Shown piece after piece: positions 4,335 through 45,350 of a stretch of 64,000 nt of DNA. Below the pieces are notes generated by a model. It was not told the DNA's origin. It saw only the letters and a program-made list of their open reading frames with translations, and did no database searches. Positions within the stretch are counted from its first letter, which is position 1. The number at the start of each line of letters is the position of its first letter. Both the position numbers and the translations under genes were made by a program. This DNA comes from Parcubacteria group bacterium RIFCSPLOWO2_01_FULL_48_18 (lineage in GTDB: Bacteria > Patescibacteriota > Minisyncoccia > UBA6257 > WO2-01-48-18). Location: positions 2,346-66,345 of the forward strand of contig MHXH01000013.1 of assembly GCA_001824435.1 (NCBI GenBank). The letters are read 5' to 3'.

Positions 4335-4420
4335 TCTAGAATTTAGAATTTGGAATTTAGAATTTGGAAAATCTGACTCCTATAATTCAGATTCCAGCTT
4401 CTAGATTCCAGATTCTAGAA
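4335..4420. repeat. intergenic heptamer-repeat hairpin (GAATTTA/GAATTTG x4 ... AGATTCC/AGATTCT x4, inverted halves)
   Basis: TCTAGAATTTAGAATTTGGAATTTAGAATTTGGAA ... TTCAGATTCCAGCTTCTAGATTCCAGATTCTAGAA fills the entire spacer between two pilin genes. Confidence 0.8.
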
Positions 4421-6619: not shown

Positions 6620-6700
6620 ACAGAATTTAGGATTTAGAATTTAGAATTTAGGATTTAGGCAGTTCGCTAAATGCTAAATACCAAAAGCCAAATGCTCGGC
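6620..6700. repeat. tandem heptamer repeats (GAATTTAG/GGATTTAG x5; then CTAAATG-like x3)
   Basis: AGAATTTAGGATTTAGAATTTAGAATTTAGGATTTAGG...CTAAATGCTAAATACCAAAAGCCAAATGC lies between the pilD start and the pilA stop. Confidence 0.8.
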
Positions 6701-12175: not shown

Positions 12176-12215
12176 GGCCCCAGATTCCAGACCCCAGATT
12201 CTAGATTCTAAACGC
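12176..12215. repeat. tandem heptamer repeats (CAGATTC x3) upstream of pilB
   Basis: CCCCCAGATTCCAGACCCCAGATTCTAGATTCTAAACG. Confidence 0.75.
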
Positions 12216-12442
12216 TCGGATGTTAAGGCCTTTTACATAATAAATTTCGTAGCGAAATTTTGAGATTTTAAGGTGAAAACCGCGAAGCGCGACGAAGAAT
12301 AGCAATAGCTATTTTGAGGAGCGATGAGCGGTTTGTGGTTCGACAGACTCACCATCCTTCGATGAACCATCCTGAGTTAGTCGAAGGACAGCCCAAATAT
12401 CAAAATTGTAGCAGAAAGATTATTATGCAAGAGGTCTTTAGT

Positions 12443-12852: not shown

Positions 12853-12924
12853 GTTATTAGAATCTAGAATTTAGAATCTGGAATTTGGTCCGCCAGCTGG
12901 CGGACTAGATTCCAGATTCCAGGC
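12853..12924. repeat. intergenic heptamer-repeat hairpin around perfect palindrome TCCGCCAGCTGGCGGA
   Basis: TAGAATCTAGAATTTAGAATCTGGAATTTGG-TCCGCCAGCTGGCGGA-CTAGATTCCAGATTCCAGG is the entire PilP-like/PilO spacer. Confidence 0.8.
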
Positions 12925-13572
12925 CTATTGGAACTCTACCGCAGGTCGGTTGGCCTGAATCTGCTTCGAAGCCCTTGTTCTTGTTGCGGGCAATTCTTTC
13001 GCCTGATAATATACATCGAGTTCGATGTTCGCGCGCAGGATAGTTTGGTTGTTGGTGCGGCCTCGGGCGTTGTCGCTGCCGCCTTCAATTTTAACATCGT
13101 GGACATCCATGAGCCTTATATTGCTCGCAATGTCCTCGATAAGCGCGCGGAGATTTTCATACAAGCCGGCGAGTTCGAGGGAAACCCGCATCGCGGCATA
13201 ACCGTAGGTGATATCCGGTTTTGGAGGCTGGCCGACCGTCGGCGGCTCAAACGAGATGGATTCAAGCGCGACATTATTCCGCTCCGAAACAACAGAGAGG
13301 AGGGCCGCGACAGTCGGCACATCGGCTTCAAGCGGAAGGGCAAGTGCTATTTTTTCCTGAAGCGGGGTAAACCCTTCATATTTGTTCAGCAGGTCGCGGA
13401 TTTGCTTAAGCACGTTTTGTTTGTCGTTTCTTTCGGAAATCTTTAATCCAAATTTGCCGCGCAGCATGAGCATGTCCCCGTAGAGCGGCTTAACCATCAA
13501 CAGAAAAAGCGTCAGCGCTGCTATCATGAGCACAAACGATGCTAAAATAGTTGTCACGCGGGTAGTCTTCAC
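12925..13572 (-). CDS. pilO: pilus assembly protein PilO-like
   Basis: 215 aa with an N-terminal TM helix, then a coiled coil and an alpha/beta domain. It occupies the third position of the pilM-N-O string. Confidence 0.55.
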   Translation of the reverse strand: MKTTRVTTILASFVLMIAALTLFLLMVKPLYGDMLMLRGKFGLKISERNDKQNVLKQIRDLLNKYEGFTPLQEKIALALPLEADVPTVAALLSVVSERNNVALESISFEPPTVGQPPKPDITYGYAAMRVSLELAGLYENLRALIEDIASNIRLMDVHDVKIEGGSDNARGRTNNQTILRANIELDVYYQAKELPATRTRASKQIQANRPAVEFQ

Positions 13573-26739: not shown

Positions 26740-28245
26740 TTGATGAAATTTTCTGTTCCGGGAGAAGTCTTGACCGCATTGCATACACTCAATGATGCCG
26801 GCTTCGAAGCGTATATTGTCGGCGGCTGCGTGCGGGATTTATTGCTCGGTAAAGAACCGAAAGATTGGGATATTACCACGAACGCAAAACCCGAAGAAAT
26901 TCAGAAGCTCTTTTCGGAAAGCGTGTATGAAAATACATTCGGCACGGTGGGCGTAAAGACCGGATCGGAAAATCCGCGCCTTGCCATTGTCGAAATTACT
27001 ACGTACCGCAAAGAAGAAAAATACAGCGATAAGCGCCATCCGGATAAACTCGAATTTACCGACTCGATTGAAGAAGACCTCAAACGACGAGATTTCACCA
27101 TTAATGCTATTGCCATGAAATTAACCAGCTACCAGCTACCTCTCGAAACTGCTCGGGGCAAGCAAGCTACAAGCTACAAGCTCATCGATCCTTTTGGTGG
27201 TCAGGGAGACCTTGAAAAAAAACTTGTTCGAACAGTGGGTAATCCCGAGAATCGATTTTCCGAAGACGCCCTGCGCCTCCTGCGCGCTCCGCGCTTCGCG
27301 ACAGCGCTTGGTTTCTCAACTGAAGAAGAAACCGCCCGAGCGATTAAAGCAAACGCTTCATGGCTCGCGGCGATTTCAAAAGAACGGATACGAGACGAAT
27401 TCGTTCACATTATCATGGCTGAACAGGCAGCCGAAGGGATTTGGCTTCTTGAAGAACTACGTCTGTTAGAACACATCATTCCCGAACTTCGCGAGGGCAT
27501 CGGCGTAGGACAGAACAAACACCATGTGTATACGGTTTTCGAACATAACCTGAAATCCCTTGCATATGCGGCTCTAAACGATTTTTCTCTGGATGTGCGG
27601 CTCGCATCTCTCTTGCATGATGTCGGAAAACCGCGGACGAAGCGCGGCGAGGGGCCTGATTGCACGTTTTATGGCCACCAAGTCGTCGGAGAAAGAATGG
27701 CGCTTGAAGTGTTTGACCGCCTCCGATTTTCCAGAAAAACCGTCGAGCGCGTCGCGCTTCTCATCCGCGAGCATATGTTTGTCTATGACGTCGGCACGGT
27801 AACTCCTGCCGGCGTTCGGCGTCTCATTCGCCGCGTCAGTATGGAAAATATCGATGATCTTTTTCAACTCCGCGAAGCGGACAGGATCGGTTCCGGTGTC
27901 CCCAAAGCGCAGCCGTACCGCTTGCGGCATTTGAAATTCATGGTTGAAAAAGTTTCCCGCGATCCGATTTCCGTAAAAATGCTTGCAGTCCGCGGCGACG
28001 ACGTGATGAAAATTTTAAACATCGAGCCAGGGCCGAAAATCGGGCTCATTCTTAATGCGCTGTTGGGCGAGGCGCTGGAAAATCCAAACATCAATACAAA
28101 AACGATTCTCTCAAAACGGGTTGCAGAATTAGGAACAATGAGCGATGATGATCTGAAGAAACTTGCCGAGAAAGGCTTGGGAACAAAAGAAGGGCTGGAA
28201 ACCGAAGCCGAAGAAGAAATAAAGAAAAAACATTATGTAAAATGA
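26740..28245 (+). CDS. cca: CCA-adding tRNA nucleotidyltransferase with HD domain
   Basis: GGCVRDLLLGKEPKDWDITT polymerase-beta head motif, RRDFTINA, and an HD domain (HDVGK...). 501 aa. Confidence 0.85.
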   Translation: MMKFSVPGEVLTALHTLNDAGFEAYIVGGCVRDLLLGKEPKDWDITTNAKPEEIQKLFSESVYENTFGTVGVKTGSENPRLAIVEITTYRKEEKYSDKRHPDKLEFTDSIEEDLKRRDFTINAIAMKLTSYQLPLETARGKQATSYKLIDPFGGQGDLEKKLVRTVGNPENRFSEDALRLLRAPRFATALGFSTEEETARAIKANASWLAAISKERIRDEFVHIIMAEQAAEGIWLLEELRLLEHIIPELREGIGVGQNKHHVYTVFEHNLKSLAYAALNDFSLDVRLASLLHDVGKPRTKRGEGPDCTFYGHQVVGERMALEVFDRLRFSRKTVERVALLIREHMFVYDVGTVTPAGVRRLIRRVSMENIDDLFQLREADRIGSGVPKAQPYRLRHLKFMVEKVSRDPISVKMLAVRGDDVMKILNIEPGPKIGLILNALLGEALENPNINTKTILSKRVAELGTMSDDDLKKLAEKGLGTKEGLETEAEEEIKKKHYVK

Positions 28246-28378
28246 AGCTCCACGGGCTCACGCCCGCGGTATCCTTTCCGAATTGAGGGTGGAGCGAAAT
28301 CCGCCGAAGCAGAAGATTGGCTCGCATTCAGCCGCGGGCTTACGCCCACGGTCTTCTGCGAAGGCGGATAAATCTTCG
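28243..28378. repeat. ~135-bp structured intergenic repeat, copy 1 (second copy at 52210..52345)
   Basis: About 90% identical to 52210..52345. It begins at the TGA stop of cca and contains an inverted repeat (ATCCGCCGAAGCAGAAG ... CTTCTGCGAAGGCGGAT) and a direct repeat CGGGCT(C/T)ACGCCC. Confidence 0.8.
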
Positions 28379-42500: not shown

Positions 42501-43061
42501 GCTGCCGGCGTAGGAGCCGACCATCAGGGGAACAACTTCAAGGTTGTAAAGACCCGACCGGTCTTCGCGCTGTGCGAGACAGAAGGTTCTGGCTGCGCTG
42601 CGGTAACCTCGGGTGAAACCCTGGTTCCTGGTACTGTGGAAGTATTCAGGTTTAGCGTCACTGCCCACTCGGCAGAAGATGTCGTCTTTAACGGCACGAA
42701 CCACAACTTGCGGCTCACCGTCACCGGTGCTCCGTCTGCGGCGACTGCCTACAACTTCGACCTCTATGATGCTTCTACCAACACCACGGTAGCGACCCAG
42801 GTTGCTACGGCGACTGCCTCGGGCGGTTTCGTGGACTTCTCTACGGTGAACACCACGGTTCCGAAAGGCACGACCAAGACGTACTATGTCAAGGCTGCAC
42901 TCAATAACTTCAGCGCGATAGGTAACTCCTTCCAGCTGTCGCTTAAGAATGCGGCTGCAGACGTGTCGTTTAGCGATGGCACCGCAAGCGCTGATCTCTC
43001 GGCTGCCAACTTTGTCGGCTGGGGTCTGCCGCTCGATGGTGAAACGCTGGTCAAGCCATAA
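39558..43061 (+). CDS. giant secreted surface protein: signal peptide, peptidoglycan-binding domain, Pro-rich linker, ~5 tandem beta-rich repeat domains
   Basis: SP MSKLSNKITSVTLSLTTAVWLSGAAMLVPVAHG. PG_binding_1-like segment (GSKGDAVSNLQTFLKNEGADVYPEGLVTGYFGSLTKAAVMRYQ). (T/V)PPPS x5 linker. Recurring ~190-aa units each containing xKLxxDG(V/L)QVG(S/T). Confidence 0.7.
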   Translation: MSKLSNKITSVTLSLTTAVWLSGAAMLVPVAHGQSVDELQAQISALLAQIQTLQSQLTTLQGDSPAPSLPSFTSDLTVGSKGDAVSNLQTFLKNEGADVYPEGLVTGYFGSLTKAAVMRYQDKYADAVLAPLGLSSGTGYFGAGTRAHVNSRLAVATPPPSVTPPPSTTPPPSVTPPPEVTPPPSVTPPPAAAAGLTVALDSGNPSGSTLVADLTSGQGAQVLAEVLRLKLTNGDASDAKVTSLKLHRIGVSADSDFANAYLYDGATRLSDSASVTSAYFTFSNANGLFTVPAGGSKSVSLKVDLANGATSGKTFQFGLMAAGDVTANATVNLAASFHGNEFRTAQASDLGQITLTNQNPSGATNVDAGTTNYEAWRFSAQATDQKVELSYFKFTLVGTADYDALQNFKLHLDGVQVGSSAALMNSDKTLVFDLSGAPVTINAGVTKQVSLRADVMKGSGRTFRFRLAEAVDVVAKDLGYGVNIKANQADVYTLIQGGGDTTINSGSLTITKSSDSQSSNIALTATGVKLATFDWKAVGEDIKVSTVTLQIVDGANSFTNIRNVKLLADGLQVGTTAATVAVDTNQAFSAGSSFVIKAGTTKKLDVYADVQSASGAADAMAGSDTFTVRLIAGSANALRQSAGTTLDAPGSNADGNSLTVSAGTVSGTLNSSIANMTVVENAQNQLVGSWLLTAPTEQAVDVTSLTLIDRNNGDSANAAYGLGGPLDALVLKSGGTQYGQTINSPSTVSGTTQVFNLSTPLRVNAGQSIQIDLYANILSNANARWTDTDRVRVSTLTATGIVTNSSVSLAAAVNGQAVTVSTGAVLTMANEVSPTMPTAGWLVSGDTGVTLAAWKFSADNTEDVKVTRVQVLEDGTDDLPGNAKNIKLYVDGVQVGSTVPAVTNGSSNTALFENTTAGLFTVPRNSNKTLVLKVDLTDNTNATFSADGSDLRGNLNVTSGAATATTNVSAKGATSGAFATLAAGVGADHQGNNFKVVKTRPVFALCETEGSGCAAVTSGETLVPGTVEVFRFSVTAHSAEDVVFNGTNHNLRLTVTGAPSAATAYNFDLYDASTNTTVATQVATATASGGFVDFSTVNTTVPKGTTKTYYVKAALNNFSAIGNSFQLSLKNAAADVSFSDGTASADLSAANFVGWGLPLDGETLVKP

Positions 43062-43120
43062 GGCACTTTGGTTCTGAATCGATCCCGGTTGTTCTGATTC
43101 TTGTCGGAACTGAACCGGAA

Positions 43121-43156
43121 AAACAGAAAAACCCGCATTCGCGGGTTTTTCTGTTT
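43121..43156. terminator. bidirectional intrinsic terminator (16-bp stem)
   Basis: AAACAGAAAAACCCGC-attc-GCGGGTTTTTCTGTTT is a perfect inverted repeat containing A/T runs. Confidence 0.7.
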
Positions 43157-43335
43157 CAGGACTTACGCAGCTGGGCTTGAAAATCGTGTCCTTCAATTCA
43201 AATCAAAAATCCAGATTTTGAGTCATTCCCTGATTTCAACTGCGTAAGTCCTGTGTTTGAAGAGCCATTCACTCGGAGGGTCATCGATGAAGGGGCACCG
43301 ACGAGAGGCTATCGATTGAAAACCGACTTGAAAAG

Positions 43336-43357
43336 TTATCCACAAAAGTTGTCCACA
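43336..43357 (+). promoter_or_regulatory. two tandem DnaA boxes (TTATCCACA perfect; TTGTCCACA one mismatch)
   Basis: AGTTATCCACAAAAGTTGTCCACA lies immediately upstream of palindrome P1. Confidence 0.45.
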
Positions 43358-43361
43358 TTCT

Positions 43362-43397
43362 ATGCACTAAATTATGCTATAGCATAATTTAGTGCAT
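43362..43397. promoter_or_regulatory. 36-bp perfect palindrome P1 (core ATGCTATAGCAT), putative operator
   Basis: ATGCACTAAATTATGCTATAGCATAATTTAGTGCAT equals its own reverse complement. It is followed by two TATAAT hexamers and then the PaaX-like gene. Confidence 0.6.
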
Positions 43398-43453
43398 TCG
43401 CTATAATAACCGTATCTGTATAATAATCTGTATAGTACCCACAGTTTTTTGTC

Positions 43454-44053
43454 ATGAGACACAAGCCCAGGAAAAATACCAATACCGGAAAAGGCGCGAA
43501 GGGCGTGAAGGTTGTGAGGGAAATTCTCGAAGCGTTGGCTGGCGGCACGGTGATAGGGCTTGTCGCGGCCACTTCGCCTTTTTTTGTGCGCGAGCTTGTG
43601 AAAGGATTTTTAGAGCAGAGGCATTATCAAAAAATGCGCGATGAACAAAAGTATATGTGGGGTTTCCGCTATATCATTTCTCGGGAACTTATTGAGATGA
43701 AAGAAGCAGATGGCATGGTAACAGTGGTATTAACTGCAAAGGGAGAAAAGCGTGTTCTCCGTTACAACCTTGAAGAAATGAAATTGAAAAAATCCGCCAG
43801 TTGGGATCACAAATGGCGCATTGTTATTTATGACGTTCCCAGCGATAAACGGACTGCCCGAAACGCGCTGAATGAATATATGAAGCGCTTGGGATTTTAT
43901 CGCCTGCAAAAAAGCGTTTGGATATATCCTTATGAATGTCGGGATGAAATTGATTTTGTTTCCTCTGTTTTTGAGGTAAGAGAATACTGTCTTTATATCA
44001 CCGCCAACCGCTTTGAATACGATAAGGTCCTTACCGTGTTTTTTAAACTGTAG
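43454..44053 (+). CDS. PaaX-family-like putative transcriptional regulator (N-terminal wHTH + C-terminal PaaX_C/Cas2-like domain)
   Basis: 199 aa. The N-terminus FRYIISRELIEMKEADGMVTVVLTAKGEKRV looks like a wHTH wing. Then WDHKWRIVIYDVPSDKRTARNALNEYMKRLGFYRLQKSVWIYP matches the PaaX WDGKW...GFG..S pattern and the Cas2 [VI]YDV..KR..(17)..R.Q.SV(F/W) pattern. Confidence 0.55.
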   Translation: MRHKPRKNTNTGKGAKGVKVVREILEALAGGTVIGLVAATSPFFVRELVKGFLEQRHYQKMRDEQKYMWGFRYIISRELIEMKEADGMVTVVLTAKGEKRVLRYNLEEMKLKKSASWDHKWRIVIYDVPSDKRTARNALNEYMKRLGFYRLQKSVWIYPYECRDEIDFVSSVFEVREYCLYITANRFEYDKVLTVFFKL

Positions 44054-44195
44054 GAAGCCCCAGCTCCTTAAAATTATTTGTTTCTCCGCGCGAATACCCC
44101 GCGGCTTGCCGCGGGGATGAGCGCGGCTAAGAAACAAATAAAATAAAATACCACGCCGTGAACAGCTGTGGTCACAATAGACTTTTATTTCACCC

Positions 44196-44258
44196 TCTCT
44201 TGTATATTCTTCCTTTCTTGTATTCTTCTCTTGTATTCTTTCTGTATTTGTTTGTATA
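44196..44258 (+). repeat. iteron-like direct repeats (TCTTGTATTCTTC x3, degenerate 4th)
   Basis: CTCTTGTATATTCTTCCTTTCTTGTATTCTTCTCTTGTATTCTTTCTGTATTTGTTTGTATA lies immediately upstream of palindrome P2. Confidence 0.55.
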
Positions 44259-44288
44259 CACCAAATTATGCTATAGCATAATTTGGTG
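44259..44288. promoter_or_regulatory. 30-bp perfect palindrome P2 (core ATGCTATAGCAT)
   Basis: CACCAAATTATGCTATAGCATAATTTGGTG. Confidence 0.6.
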
Positions 44289-44295
44289 CGTAGGT

Positions 44296-44304
44296 TGTGG
44301 ATAA
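44296..44304 (-). promoter_or_regulatory. perfect DnaA box (TGTGGATAA = reverse complement of TTATCCACA) followed by GGATAAT repeats
   Basis: TTGTGGATAATGCGGATAATTTGGACGATTAGGATAATTTTAGG contains three GGATAAT units. ATGGATAAA lies near 44402. Confidence 0.45.
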
Positions 44305-44568
44305 TGCGGATAATTTGGACGATTAGGATAATTTTAGGAGTGATTTCTGGAAAAGAAATTTGGCAGAAATATGCCAGGAATATTCAGGTTTACCAACCGC
44401 ATGGATAAATTTTTTACCCGCGCATTAAAAAACTCCTGCCGGAATGTGGAAGGATGAATGGTTAAGTATGGCAAGGCTTTTGCTGCGGGATTTCGCCCCA
44501 CGAAAATTTACCAGAGATAAGAGGGTTATGGCTGTGGGGTCGTGGAGTTTTATTTTACGCACTAAATT

Positions 44569-44600
44569 ATGCTATAGCATAGTTTAGTGTATAAACGTGG
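44569..44600. promoter_or_regulatory. 32-bp near-palindrome P3 (core ATGCTATAGCAT, 2 mismatches to P1)
   Basis: GCACTAAATTATGCTATAGCATAGTTTAGTGT lies about 160 bp upstream of the 44760 gene. Confidence 0.55.
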
Positions 44601-44759
44601 GGGTAACGTGGGAGGGGTCATTGACAAAAAATTGTTGCTCGATTACAATGGGAGCATTGTTGATTGTCCTTGATTTTGAGATAAACGCAATCGAAAAATC
44701 TTAGAAAAATTTTATAGAAATTTCATCTCGGTTTAGCTACAATATCACCATTCTTCATT

Positions 44760-45350
44760 ATGGAAGGCGGAGCAAATAAAAACCCCGAACCAACAGAGAT
44801 TTCGCAACCTCCGCGCGAAAAACAATACAAGAGCCATATGGTAAAGTTTATGGCTGTTTTTTTGGCCGTTCTTGTCGGCGGTTTTGGCCTCGTGGGGTTG
44901 TATTCGGGATATATGAAGTATCGTGATCAACAACGTGCTGACGAGCAGTCCCAGCGGTACAGGGACGTGGAACAACGTTATATCGAGGCCATGACCGCTG
45001 ACACGCATGGCGGCAAAACCCCGGAGGAAACTTTGAAAATGTTTATTGACGCCTTACGCCGAGAAGATGTTGATTTGGCGAGTAAGTATTTTGCGCTAGA
45101 AACGAGCGAAAAGAACCTTGATGAATATTTAACCAGAAAGAAATGGGAAGTTGCCTTATTACAAGCAAAAAACGAGGGGCGACTAGAGGAGGTTATTAGT
45201 GTTGTTACACGTGCCGTGCCATACACGAGTGGTCAGGCTTACAAAAAAGACTACAAGTTTGCAACATATAAAGAAAATGGCGACCTAGAAGGTTATATAA
45301 ATATGGAGCTTAATACTTTTTCTCAAGTTTGGAAGATAGAAAGTCTATGA
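44760..45350 (+). CDS. hypothetical single-pass membrane-anchored protein with extracytoplasmic domain
   Basis: 196 aa with TM helix FMAVFLAVLVGGFGLVGLY followed by a charged helical domain. It lies immediately upstream of the giant PLC/LTD gene. Confidence 0.45.
   Translation: MEGGANKNPEPTEISQPPREKQYKSHMVKFMAVFLAVLVGGFGLVGLYSGYMKYRDQQRADEQSQRYRDVEQRYIEAMTADTHGGKTPEETLKMFIDALRREDVDLASKYFALETSEKNLDEYLTRKKWEVALLQAKNEGRLEEVISVVTRAVPYTSGQAYKKDYKFATYKENGDLEGYINMELNTFSQVWKIESL

Follow-up and report, generated by a model that had tools for sequence, protein, structure and literature searches.

We analyzed a gene for a 199-residue protein in a 64,000-nucleotide stretch of contig MHXH01000013.1 of Parcubacteria group bacterium RIFCSPLOWO2_01_FULL_48_18 (hereafter the window), together with its relatives in 80 loci from GTDB (L001-L080, to which the window is added where stated). 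We found that the homologous genes at these loci carry long palindromes upstream and downstream, 30-50 bp in length and built on a conserved 8-bp core, and that the two copies at one locus are near-identical while the sequences differ between loci. We propose that the protein is probably a minimal PaaX-like dimeric autoregulator, with the flanking composite palindromes as its predicted operators. An earlier examination of the letters of the window (the sequence-only reading) had suggested that the palindromes around the gene could be the targets of this protein, and comparative genomics strongly backs this idea, given that the homologues have core-bearing palindromes of their own that overlap predicted promoters. 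The gene and its two domains lie as follows:

43454-44053, plus strand: coding sequence of 199 amino acids (aa) with an ATG start, comprising a winged helix-turn-helix (wHTH), a linker helix and a Cas2-like (PaaX_M) domain.
43484-43732, plus strand: the wHTH, aa ~11-93, placed by the AlphaFold secondary structure and profile matches to PDB.
43796-44014, plus strand: the Cas2-like ferredoxin-fold domain, aa 115-187, placed by PF20803, the fold, Foldseek and residue invariance.

The C-terminal domain matches Pfam family PF20803 PaaX_M ("PaaX protein central Cas2-like domain") over aa 115-187 (E 4.9e-21, 75.1 bits, cut-off 24). Cas2 profiles also match, namely PF09827 CRISPR_Cas2 (24.1 bits, cut-off 23.8), TIGR01573 cas2 of NCBIfam (30.4 bits, cut-off 24.5) and the Cas2 models of PADLOC (best E 9e-8), and all of these alignments are restricted to aa 121-157 and to model positions 2-39, the first third of a Cas2. 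The sequence-only reading had described a PaaX-like wHTH joined to a Cas2-like domain, and this description is borne out by PF20803, the Cas2 profiles, the AlphaFold model and Foldseek; the resemblance is significant at the level of profiles, with Pfam and NCBIfam matches above their cut-offs. It erred in one respect. The WDxxW...GF...S..P pattern within the C-terminal segment that it quoted (WDHKWRIVIYDVPSDKRTARNALNEYMKRLGFYRLQKSVWIYP, aa 117-159, which the translation of the open reading frame (ORF) matches exactly) was attributed to PaaX_C (PF08223) and belongs instead to PaaX_M. Whereas E. coli PaaX, used as a positive control, matches all three PaaX domains of Pfam (PF07848, PF20803 and PF08223), the 199-aa protein has no Pfam match to PaaX_C, its chain stopping 12 residues past the Cas2-like domain, and aa 1-115 match no Pfam family, PF07848 included. 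Scores for the equivalog models of PaaX (TIGR02277, 21.8 bits) and VapD (NF041506, 12.5 bits) fall far below the cut-offs of 264.55 and 100, respectively.

An AlphaFold model built from 40 homologues (mean pLDDT 84, pTM 0.66) shows a basic disordered tail (aa 1-10), then the wHTH (helix 11-29, strand 35-37, helices 44-55 and 61-76, wing 80-93), a linker helix (95-107) that joins it to the Cas2-like domain, and a ferredoxin domain with the order beta-alpha-beta-beta-alpha-beta (121-184) that is followed by a terminal helix. A hydrophobic stretch at aa 24-45 was considered as a membrane anchor and rejected, as the model folds it into helix 1, strand 1 and helix 2 of the wHTH. In a Foldseek search of PDB, the top match was PaaX of E. 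coli W (8a39, E 4e-4, 188 columns) and the second was Rv0674 of M. tuberculosis (3kfw, 180 columns); full-length matches were limited to these two and a PaaX-like protein of Jannaschia (3l09). Taken separately, the C-terminal domain matched Cas2 chains (6jhz, 8ia4, 3exc and 5zyf, ~75 aligned residues) and the N-terminal domain matched LmrR/PadR-type proteins, and the family profile gave weak matches in PDB to the wHTH proteins AspA, MarR, ArsR, TubR and PadR.

Comparison of the family profile with E. coli PaaX by hhalign (90% probability, 122 columns) aligned helix 3 and the wing, and placed the family motifs IVIFDIP and LQKSV opposite LLLSEGL and LAPSL of PaaX, which indicates that a Cas2 signature, lost in PaaX, persists in the family. 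The Asp of the IYDV motif, which the sequence-only reading had singled out as the possible Cas2 catalytic residue, does align with the catalytic Asp of Cas2 and is kept as D127 in all 351 family sequences compared. S154 is likewise kept in 351/351, Q152 in 348/351 and R136 in 346/351. Across alignment columns, the mean frequency of the majority residue is 0.62 in the Cas2-like domain and 0.43 in the wHTH.

The identical protein in the public record, from a Parcubacteria-group metagenome-assembled genome from the Rifle aquifer, is named "CRISPR-associated endonuclease Cas2" by NCBI. A genuine orphan Cas2 would account for the scores of TIGR01573 and PF09827 above their cut-offs and for the PADLOC matches. 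We nevertheless consider it hardly credible, as these matches span just the first ~35 residues of the models and PaaX_M fits far better (75 bits), and as the protein has double the length of a Cas2 and an N-terminal wHTH. Neither cas1 nor a CRISPR array is present in the 64 kb: a search of the whole window for an array found none, and among about 50 ORFs of the window scanned with Pfam there were no cas, dnaA, dnaN or paa genes. The absence of a CRISPR context noted in the sequence-only reading was thereby confirmed. In the 80 other loci, we found no conserved neighbor or operon partner (the largest cluster is Pol III alpha, in 7/80), and the commonest neighbors are housekeeping genes (dnaE, dnaB, tRNA synthetases and recR). 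Given these results for the window and the 80 loci, the Cas2 name is a misannotation, and the protein is unrelated to CRISPR. The sequence-only reading had also raised a toxin; no conserved small neighbor gene that could serve as a toxin-antitoxin partner was found among the 80 loci.

To quantify the association between gene and palindromes, we counted palindromes whose arms measured 13 nt or more and obtained densities per kb of 2.4 (upstream) and 2.0 (downstream) within 150 bp of the family genes, against a background of about 0.1 per kb beyond 1 kb from the gene. We also compared the upstream 250 nt with the downstream 300 nt of 82 genes; the two shared an ungapped match of 18 nt or more in 49/82, against 0/246 in mismatched pairs of loci. 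The segments in common almost always contain one of the core 8-mers GCGATCGC, GCTATCGC, GCTATAGC, GCCATGGC, ACGATCGT, CCGATCGG, GCATATGC or GCGGTCGC, whose density per kb is 3.5 in the upstream and 2.9 in the downstream flank, compared to 0.28 in other intergenic DNA and 0.14 in coding DNA, that is, a 10-25-fold enrichment at family-gene flanks. A core is found in at least one flank at 68/80 loci and in both flanks at 57/80, and most core centers lie at a distance of 20-60 nt from the start or stop codon, respectively. Loci without a zero-loop palindrome mostly have inverted arms of 10-19 nt that lie 10-28 nt apart, with the core inside the spacer. Beyond the arms the two copies at a locus are unrelated (~25% identity), and so the repeated unit is the site itself. 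Paralogues of one genome carry different palindromes.

Alternatively, the palindromes might be generic, either terminators or repeats of the REP or HIP type, and adjoin the gene by chance, the function of the protein being unrelated to them. Zero-loop palindromes with like cores are indeed found, at low density, in other parts of the loci, and the core GCGATCGC is identical to the HIP1 octamer of cyanobacteria. This explanation is very improbable in view of the enrichment at family genes, which extends over more than 60 independent loci, and of the locus-specific matching of the flanks. Moreover, in the window the upstream gene ends in an ordinary terminator with a GC stem and a T-run (43121-43156), and the stems downstream of the family genes mostly lack T-runs. 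Intrinsic termination was rejected as a general explanation of the downstream site, as a T-run follows the downstream stem in only 10/51 cases.

In the window, the two sites that flank the gene and its predicted promoter element are the following:

43362-43397, no strand: site 1, a perfect 36-bp palindrome with the halves ATGCACTAAATTATGCTA and TAGCATAATTTAGTGCAT and the core GCTATAGC; proposed operator, overlapping the -35 region.
43402-43407, plus strand: predicted -10 element (TATAAT) for the promoter of the gene, placed +22 nt relative to the dyad of site 1, a register shared with other loci.
44259-44288, no strand: site 2, a perfect 30-bp palindrome with the core GCTATAGC.

The sites share a defined anatomy, with a median span of 40 bp. 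Complementarity between the arms is 74-84% at 9-17 nt from the dyad and 55-66% at 5-8 nt, and falls to background past 21 nt, with the locus-specific arms lying about 9-20 bp from the dyad. Positions 8-11 are almost purely A/T, and positions 12-15 are enriched in C on the 5' arm. The core and the arms are kept even where the interior is not self-complementary, as expected of a site bound by a protein as duplex. In an ungapped alignment of 40 sites, 17 of the 18 stem columns vary on both sides with complementarity retained, a level of pairing that is no evidence in itself because the sites had been selected for being palindromes.

The upstream site also has a fixed position relative to the promoter. 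Using consensus predictions, in which a strong -10 element is TATAAT or TG-extended, we found such an element on the gene strand within 15-39 nt of the dyad at 36/80 upstream sites, compared to 8/80 on the mirror strand and 5-6/83 at downstream sites. The best predicted promoters cluster at +22 to +28 from the dyad, with the -35 element abutting or overlapping the core, as in GCTATCGC-TTGCAC and TTG-ACGATCGT. The upstream site spans roughly -57 to -17 of the gene's own predicted promoter, a position of the repressor type, and the transcript should start downstream of it.

In the model that we favor, the N-terminal winged helix would read DNA and the Cas2-like ferredoxin domain would form the dimer, as in PaaX, the C-terminal effector-binding domain of PaaX being missing. 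The targets of the dimer would be the ~40-bp composite palindromes, each made up of the 8-bp core on the dyad (GCTATAGC in the window), the A/T zone and the locus-specific arms; the conserved Cas2-like dimer may face the conserved core, with the variable wHTHs reading the variable arms. Correlations that would tie the arms to the wHTH rather than to the Cas2-like domain are tiny (partial correlation ~0.02) and speak neither for nor against this division. By occupying the upstream site, where it would cover the -35 region of the predicted promoter, the protein would most likely repress its own gene, and the matching downstream site may serve as a co-operator, for example through looping. Further candidate targets in the window are the promoter region of an operon for a membrane protein and an LTD surface protein, and the start of an O-antigen-ligase-like gene.

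Several observations weigh against this model. The downstream site has no adjacent promoter, and the next gene is convergent in half of the loci (40 downstream neighbors on the plus strand and 39 on the minus strand), so that a simple operator role fails there. It is also unusual for a regulator that most of the sites we see adjoin the gene that encodes it. The arms diverge faster than the wHTH (arm identity versus protein identity, rho 0.08-0.11). Differences between the two copies at a locus are usually mirrored on the opposite arm (the window, L003, L060, L075, L076 and L077); in the window, the sole difference between sites 1 and 2 occurs in both arms in this way (CACCAAATT/AATTTGGTG). This suggests a selection or a mechanism for self-complementarity beyond what binding of a dimer needs, and template-switch correction of quasipalindromes could, we infer, produce such changes. 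In addition, the asymmetric core GCTATCGC is oriented along the gene strand in 25 cases and in reverse, as GCGATAGC, in 4, counted over the upstream and downstream sites of L001-L080. Base composition is asymmetric as well, T making up 30% of the second position on the 5' side of the dyad and A just 14% on the 3' side. Binding of a symmetric dimer would not predict such a bias. Finally, the invariance of D127, S154, Q152 and R136 exceeds the obvious needs of a dimerization scaffold. The autoregulator model thus leaves the downstream site, the mirrored substitutions, the orientation bias of GCTATCGC and the invariant Asp unexplained, and this keeps two other explanations alive, one at the level of RNA and one that involves cleavage of DNA.

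In the first, the palindromes are transcript hairpins that are bound or cleaved through the Cas2/VapD-like RNase fold, controlling the protein's own mRNA and a few others. This would agree with the location of the downstream site, which lies within the 3' untranslated region at every locus, with the pairing preserved by mirrored changes, with the bias of the core to the gene strand, and with a fourth palindrome of the window (site 4, below), which as a hairpin would sequester the start codon of a Wzy_C gene. The stems of the sense strand also contain 25 G.T mismatches against 7 A.C, which is weak evidence for RNA and mostly compositional, since the background ratio at unpaired positions is already ~1.6. 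On the other hand, the predicted promoters put the transcription start site downstream of the upstream site, so that the upstream copy would be absent from the gene's own mRNA. At many loci the interior is non-complementary and the spacing between core and arms is still kept; the zone restricted to A/T at a fixed distance from the dyad is typical of DNA sites, and the scarcity of T-runs after the downstream stems speaks against this reading as well. We give the RNA explanation little chance.

In the second explanation, the protein is a site-specific nuclease or recombinase, in which D127 residues paired into a metal site on the two-fold axis cut or nick the core, possibly in an extruded hairpin or cruciform. 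As a corollary, the unit of palindrome, gene and palindrome would be, or would once have been, a selfish cassette comparable to REPtrons or to IS200/IS605 with their ends. The four near-invariant residues, with D127 at the catalytic position of Cas2, point in this direction, as does the fact that in IVIFDIP and LQKSV the family is closer to Cas2 than PaaX is. The coding sequence is tightly bracketed by the cores, there is no conserved partner, several paralogues occur per genome and the orientation of the downstream neighbor is random. Moreover, the perfect mirrored palindromes form stable folds as single strands (z = -6 to -10). In a bona fide Cas2, the conserved Asp is not known to be required for the established role of the protein, and its invariance in the family does not, for that reason, prove catalysis.

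The evidence on mobility argues against such a cassette. Copies within a genome are never near-identical (paralogues are 32-66% identical), and orthologue pairs with at least 70% identity mostly have the same neighbors, which are about as diverged as the gene itself. The flanks are dissimilar beyond the site, no target-site duplication was seen in the window, and no relatives were found in viral contigs. The fixed promoter register of the upstream site is, furthermore, a regulatory signature. The identical protein is encoded on ten further contigs; these have an unchanged context, with at most 1 SNP in 1.4 kb, and are uninformative on mobility. The gene is probably resident and not currently mobile, and we consider the nuclease or recombinase explanation unlikely. 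A novel variant of it, to which we assign only a slim probability, is that the invariant Asp with S154, Q152 and R136 forms a working metal site on the dimer axis, right above the core, and that the family nicks or cleaves its own flanking palindromes as DNA or hairpin with specificity for sequence or structure. If true, this would be a free-living relative of Cas2 that recognizes palindromic repeats without Cas1, and it would inform the question of how CRISPR systems acquired Cas2 and the recognition of repeats, as well as the origins of PaaX-type regulators.

The protein belongs to a large family. An exhaustive hidden Markov model search returned 1,377 cluster representatives (50% identity) at E<=1e-30 and 3,913 at E<=1e-10, with lengths of 170-241 aa among the best 150 matches listed, and the closest relative of the protein that is not identical to it shares only 45% identity. 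There are at least 583 family loci in GTDB with one genome per species, nearly all of them titled Patescibacteria or candidate phyla radiation (CPR), with two copies in several genomes. In the literature that we searched, we found no paper on the family or on its palindromes. Taken alone, the protein adds one new member to an established domain family; Pfam already describes it as Cas2-like and NCBI mislabels it as Cas2; the architecture of palindrome, gene and palindrome with a common 8-bp core and a fixed promoter register appears to be undescribed in that literature. Many relatives also carry the Cas2 name in public records, and counts of Cas2 in Patescibacteria will include them wherever this name is used. 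CPR bacteria are mostly uncultured, and to our knowledge next to nothing is known of their transcriptional regulation; here, a protein family is paired with a predicted locus-specific site of defined anatomy (core, A/T zone, arms and promoter register), which makes the family a tractable and moderately interesting target.

Elsewhere in the window, candidate targets of the predicted regulator are marked by two further palindromes:

44556-44593, no strand: site 3, an imperfect copy of the palindrome of sites 1 and 2, followed after 27 nt by the -35 element of a sigma70-like promoter.
44621-44649, plus strand: predicted promoter TTGACA-N17-TACAAT (11/12 matches), serving the ORF at 44760-45350 and the LTD surface-protein gene behind it.
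44760-45350, plus strand: membrane-anchored protein of 196 aa, of unknown family, a candidate regulon member.
49843-49888, no strand: site 4, a perfect 46-bp palindrome with the center ATGCTATAGCAT and arms unlike those of sites 1-3.

The 20-mer AATTATGCTATAGCATAATT occurs 3 times in the window against 0 expected, and the 12-mer center ATGCTATAGCAT 4 times against 0.06 expected. L059 encodes a homologue of the 196-aa protein, and here too a copy of the locus-specific palindrome precedes the promoter, TTGACG-N16-TATAAT, by 18 nt; another homologue, at L018, directly follows the family gene and has no detectable site. The membrane-protein genes thus provide a hint of a possible regulon from two concordant cases only (the window and L059). 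Site 4 overlaps the ATG (49882) of the Wzy_C (O-antigen-ligase-like) gene, and a TATACT is located +22 nt from the dyad of this palindrome. The 267 nt that separate sites 2 and 3 (44289-44555) contain no ORF of at least 60 aa and have no Rfam match.

The sequence-only reading had also named DnaA-box elements among the possible targets of the protein. The two pairs near the gene are:

43336-43357, plus strand: a pair of DnaA-box-like 9-mers, TTATCCACA and TTGTCCACA, on the gene-distal side of site 1.
44296-44313, minus strand: the mirror pair, TTATCCACA and TTATCCGCA, on the gene-distal side of site 2.

These pairs lengthen the inverted repeat around the gene to 43336-44313. They are specific to the window, as DnaA-like boxes are not enriched at the sites of other loci (0.41 versus 0.26 per kb), and this part of the earlier proposal is not supported. 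A replication origin was rejected as well: 16 DnaA-box-like 9-mers were found in the whole window against 11 expected, which is not an over-representation, GC skew is positive throughout the window without a switch, and dnaA and dnaN are absent.

Other elements lie close to the gene. A 17-nt inverted repeat, CAGGACTTACGCAGCTG and CAACTGCGTAAGTCCTG (43157-43173 and 43237-43253, with a 63-nt loop), is located between the upstream terminator and site 1. Between the stop codon and site 2 is a long GC-rich imperfect hairpin (44074-44141; DNA fold -28.9 kcal/mol, z = -7.6), which may be an insertion or a terminator, as in most other loci the downstream site directly follows the stop codon. Immediately 5' of site 2, a 13-nt repeat of the type TTCCTTTCTTGTA is found in tandem in ~3 copies (44210-44248). 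Rfam gave no match at or near the gathering score in 42900-45000, and in the whole window it identified two tRNAs only.

By Pfam, the window contains LigA, a type IV pilus cluster, a two-component pair, ClpB, three Wzy_C proteins, large surface proteins and sugar-nucleotide enzymes. The intergenic DNA of the pilus cluster contains recurring heptamers and 14-mers (AGAATTT/TAGAATT, together with the complementary CCAGATTCTAGA type) at 464-491, 4337-4419, 6622-6663, 12180-12219 and 12857-12929. A GC-rich element of ~135 nt with internal inverted repeats and no Rfam match is present in two copies that are 93% identical (28241-28376 and 52208-52343), each directly after the end of a gene (the CCA-adding enzyme and a Wzy_C gene, respectively). 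In the other loci, the Pol III alpha (dnaE) neighbor occurs at L018, L043, L047, L062, L071, L072 and L075 and is on the opposite strand (divergent) in six of the seven; DnaB is a neighbor in 5 loci and RecR in 4 (L019, L020, L028, L035 and L036 across the two). The family proteins at the dnaE, dnaB and recR loci share 35-74% mutual identity, and these replication and repair neighbors possibly reflect old synteny or hint at a regulon.

When compared to known systems, the family resembles Cas2 and VapD in its ferredoxin fold, with the ~75 residues aligned to Cas2 chains, and Cas2 in the conserved Asp that ends strand 1 and the Q-x-S-V motif. It differs from Cas2, which stands alone at ~90-100 aa beside cas1 and an array, in being fused to a wHTH in a protein of 199 aa, and from VapD in scoring far under the cut-off of the VapD model. 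Rv0674 of M. tuberculosis (3kfw), an uncharacterized PaaX-like protein, matches weakly in sequence over the segment from WxxxW to P; it is longer (234-247 aa) and has IVTSIG opposite VIYDVP, without the Asp.

Lrp/AsnC regulators combine a helix-turn-helix with a beta-alpha-beta-beta-alpha-beta RAM domain and are often autoregulatory. The design logic is the same, a small DNA-binding domain joined to a ferredoxin-like oligomerization domain, although the RAM domain belongs to another family and gave no match in sequence or fold in our searches. REPtrons, in which RAYT genes are flanked by REP palindromes, and IS200/IS605 elements offer another analogy, that of a gene between matching hairpin-forming palindromes whose product is thought to recognize them. 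In contrast to these, the family protein is not an HUH/Y1 transposase, its sites are few per genome, its copies are old and syntenic, and its upstream site is integrated into the promoter. Near-identical copies, variable insertion sites among close relatives and a transposase fold, by which mobile elements are recognized, were not seen here, and we found no repeat beyond the palindrome and no viral or mobile matches.

The closest likeness is to PaaX, the phenylacetyl-CoA-responsive repressor of the paa genes (E. coli; 8a39, 3l09), which shares the order of an N-terminal wHTH followed by a PF20803 domain and provides both the best full-length fold match and the profile-profile match over 122 columns. 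E. coli PaaX is autoregulatory, and its operator TGATTC-N27-GAATCA spans 39 bp (PMC9493321), the same size as the predicted sites of the family with their median of 40 bp. An exact search for TGATTC-N25-29-GAATCA in the upstream region of E. coli paaX found nothing. The family differs from PaaX in lacking the PaaX_C effector domain and a match to PF07848, in having no paa genes among the ORFs of the window, and in its sites, which have a conserved central core and are present on both sides of the gene. It also keeps the FDIP and LQKSV motifs of Cas2 that are lost in PaaX. Overall, its retention of a sequence signature of Cas2 that has disappeared from PaaX places the family between Cas2 and PaaX, and the family may reveal roles of the Cas2 fold outside CRISPR.

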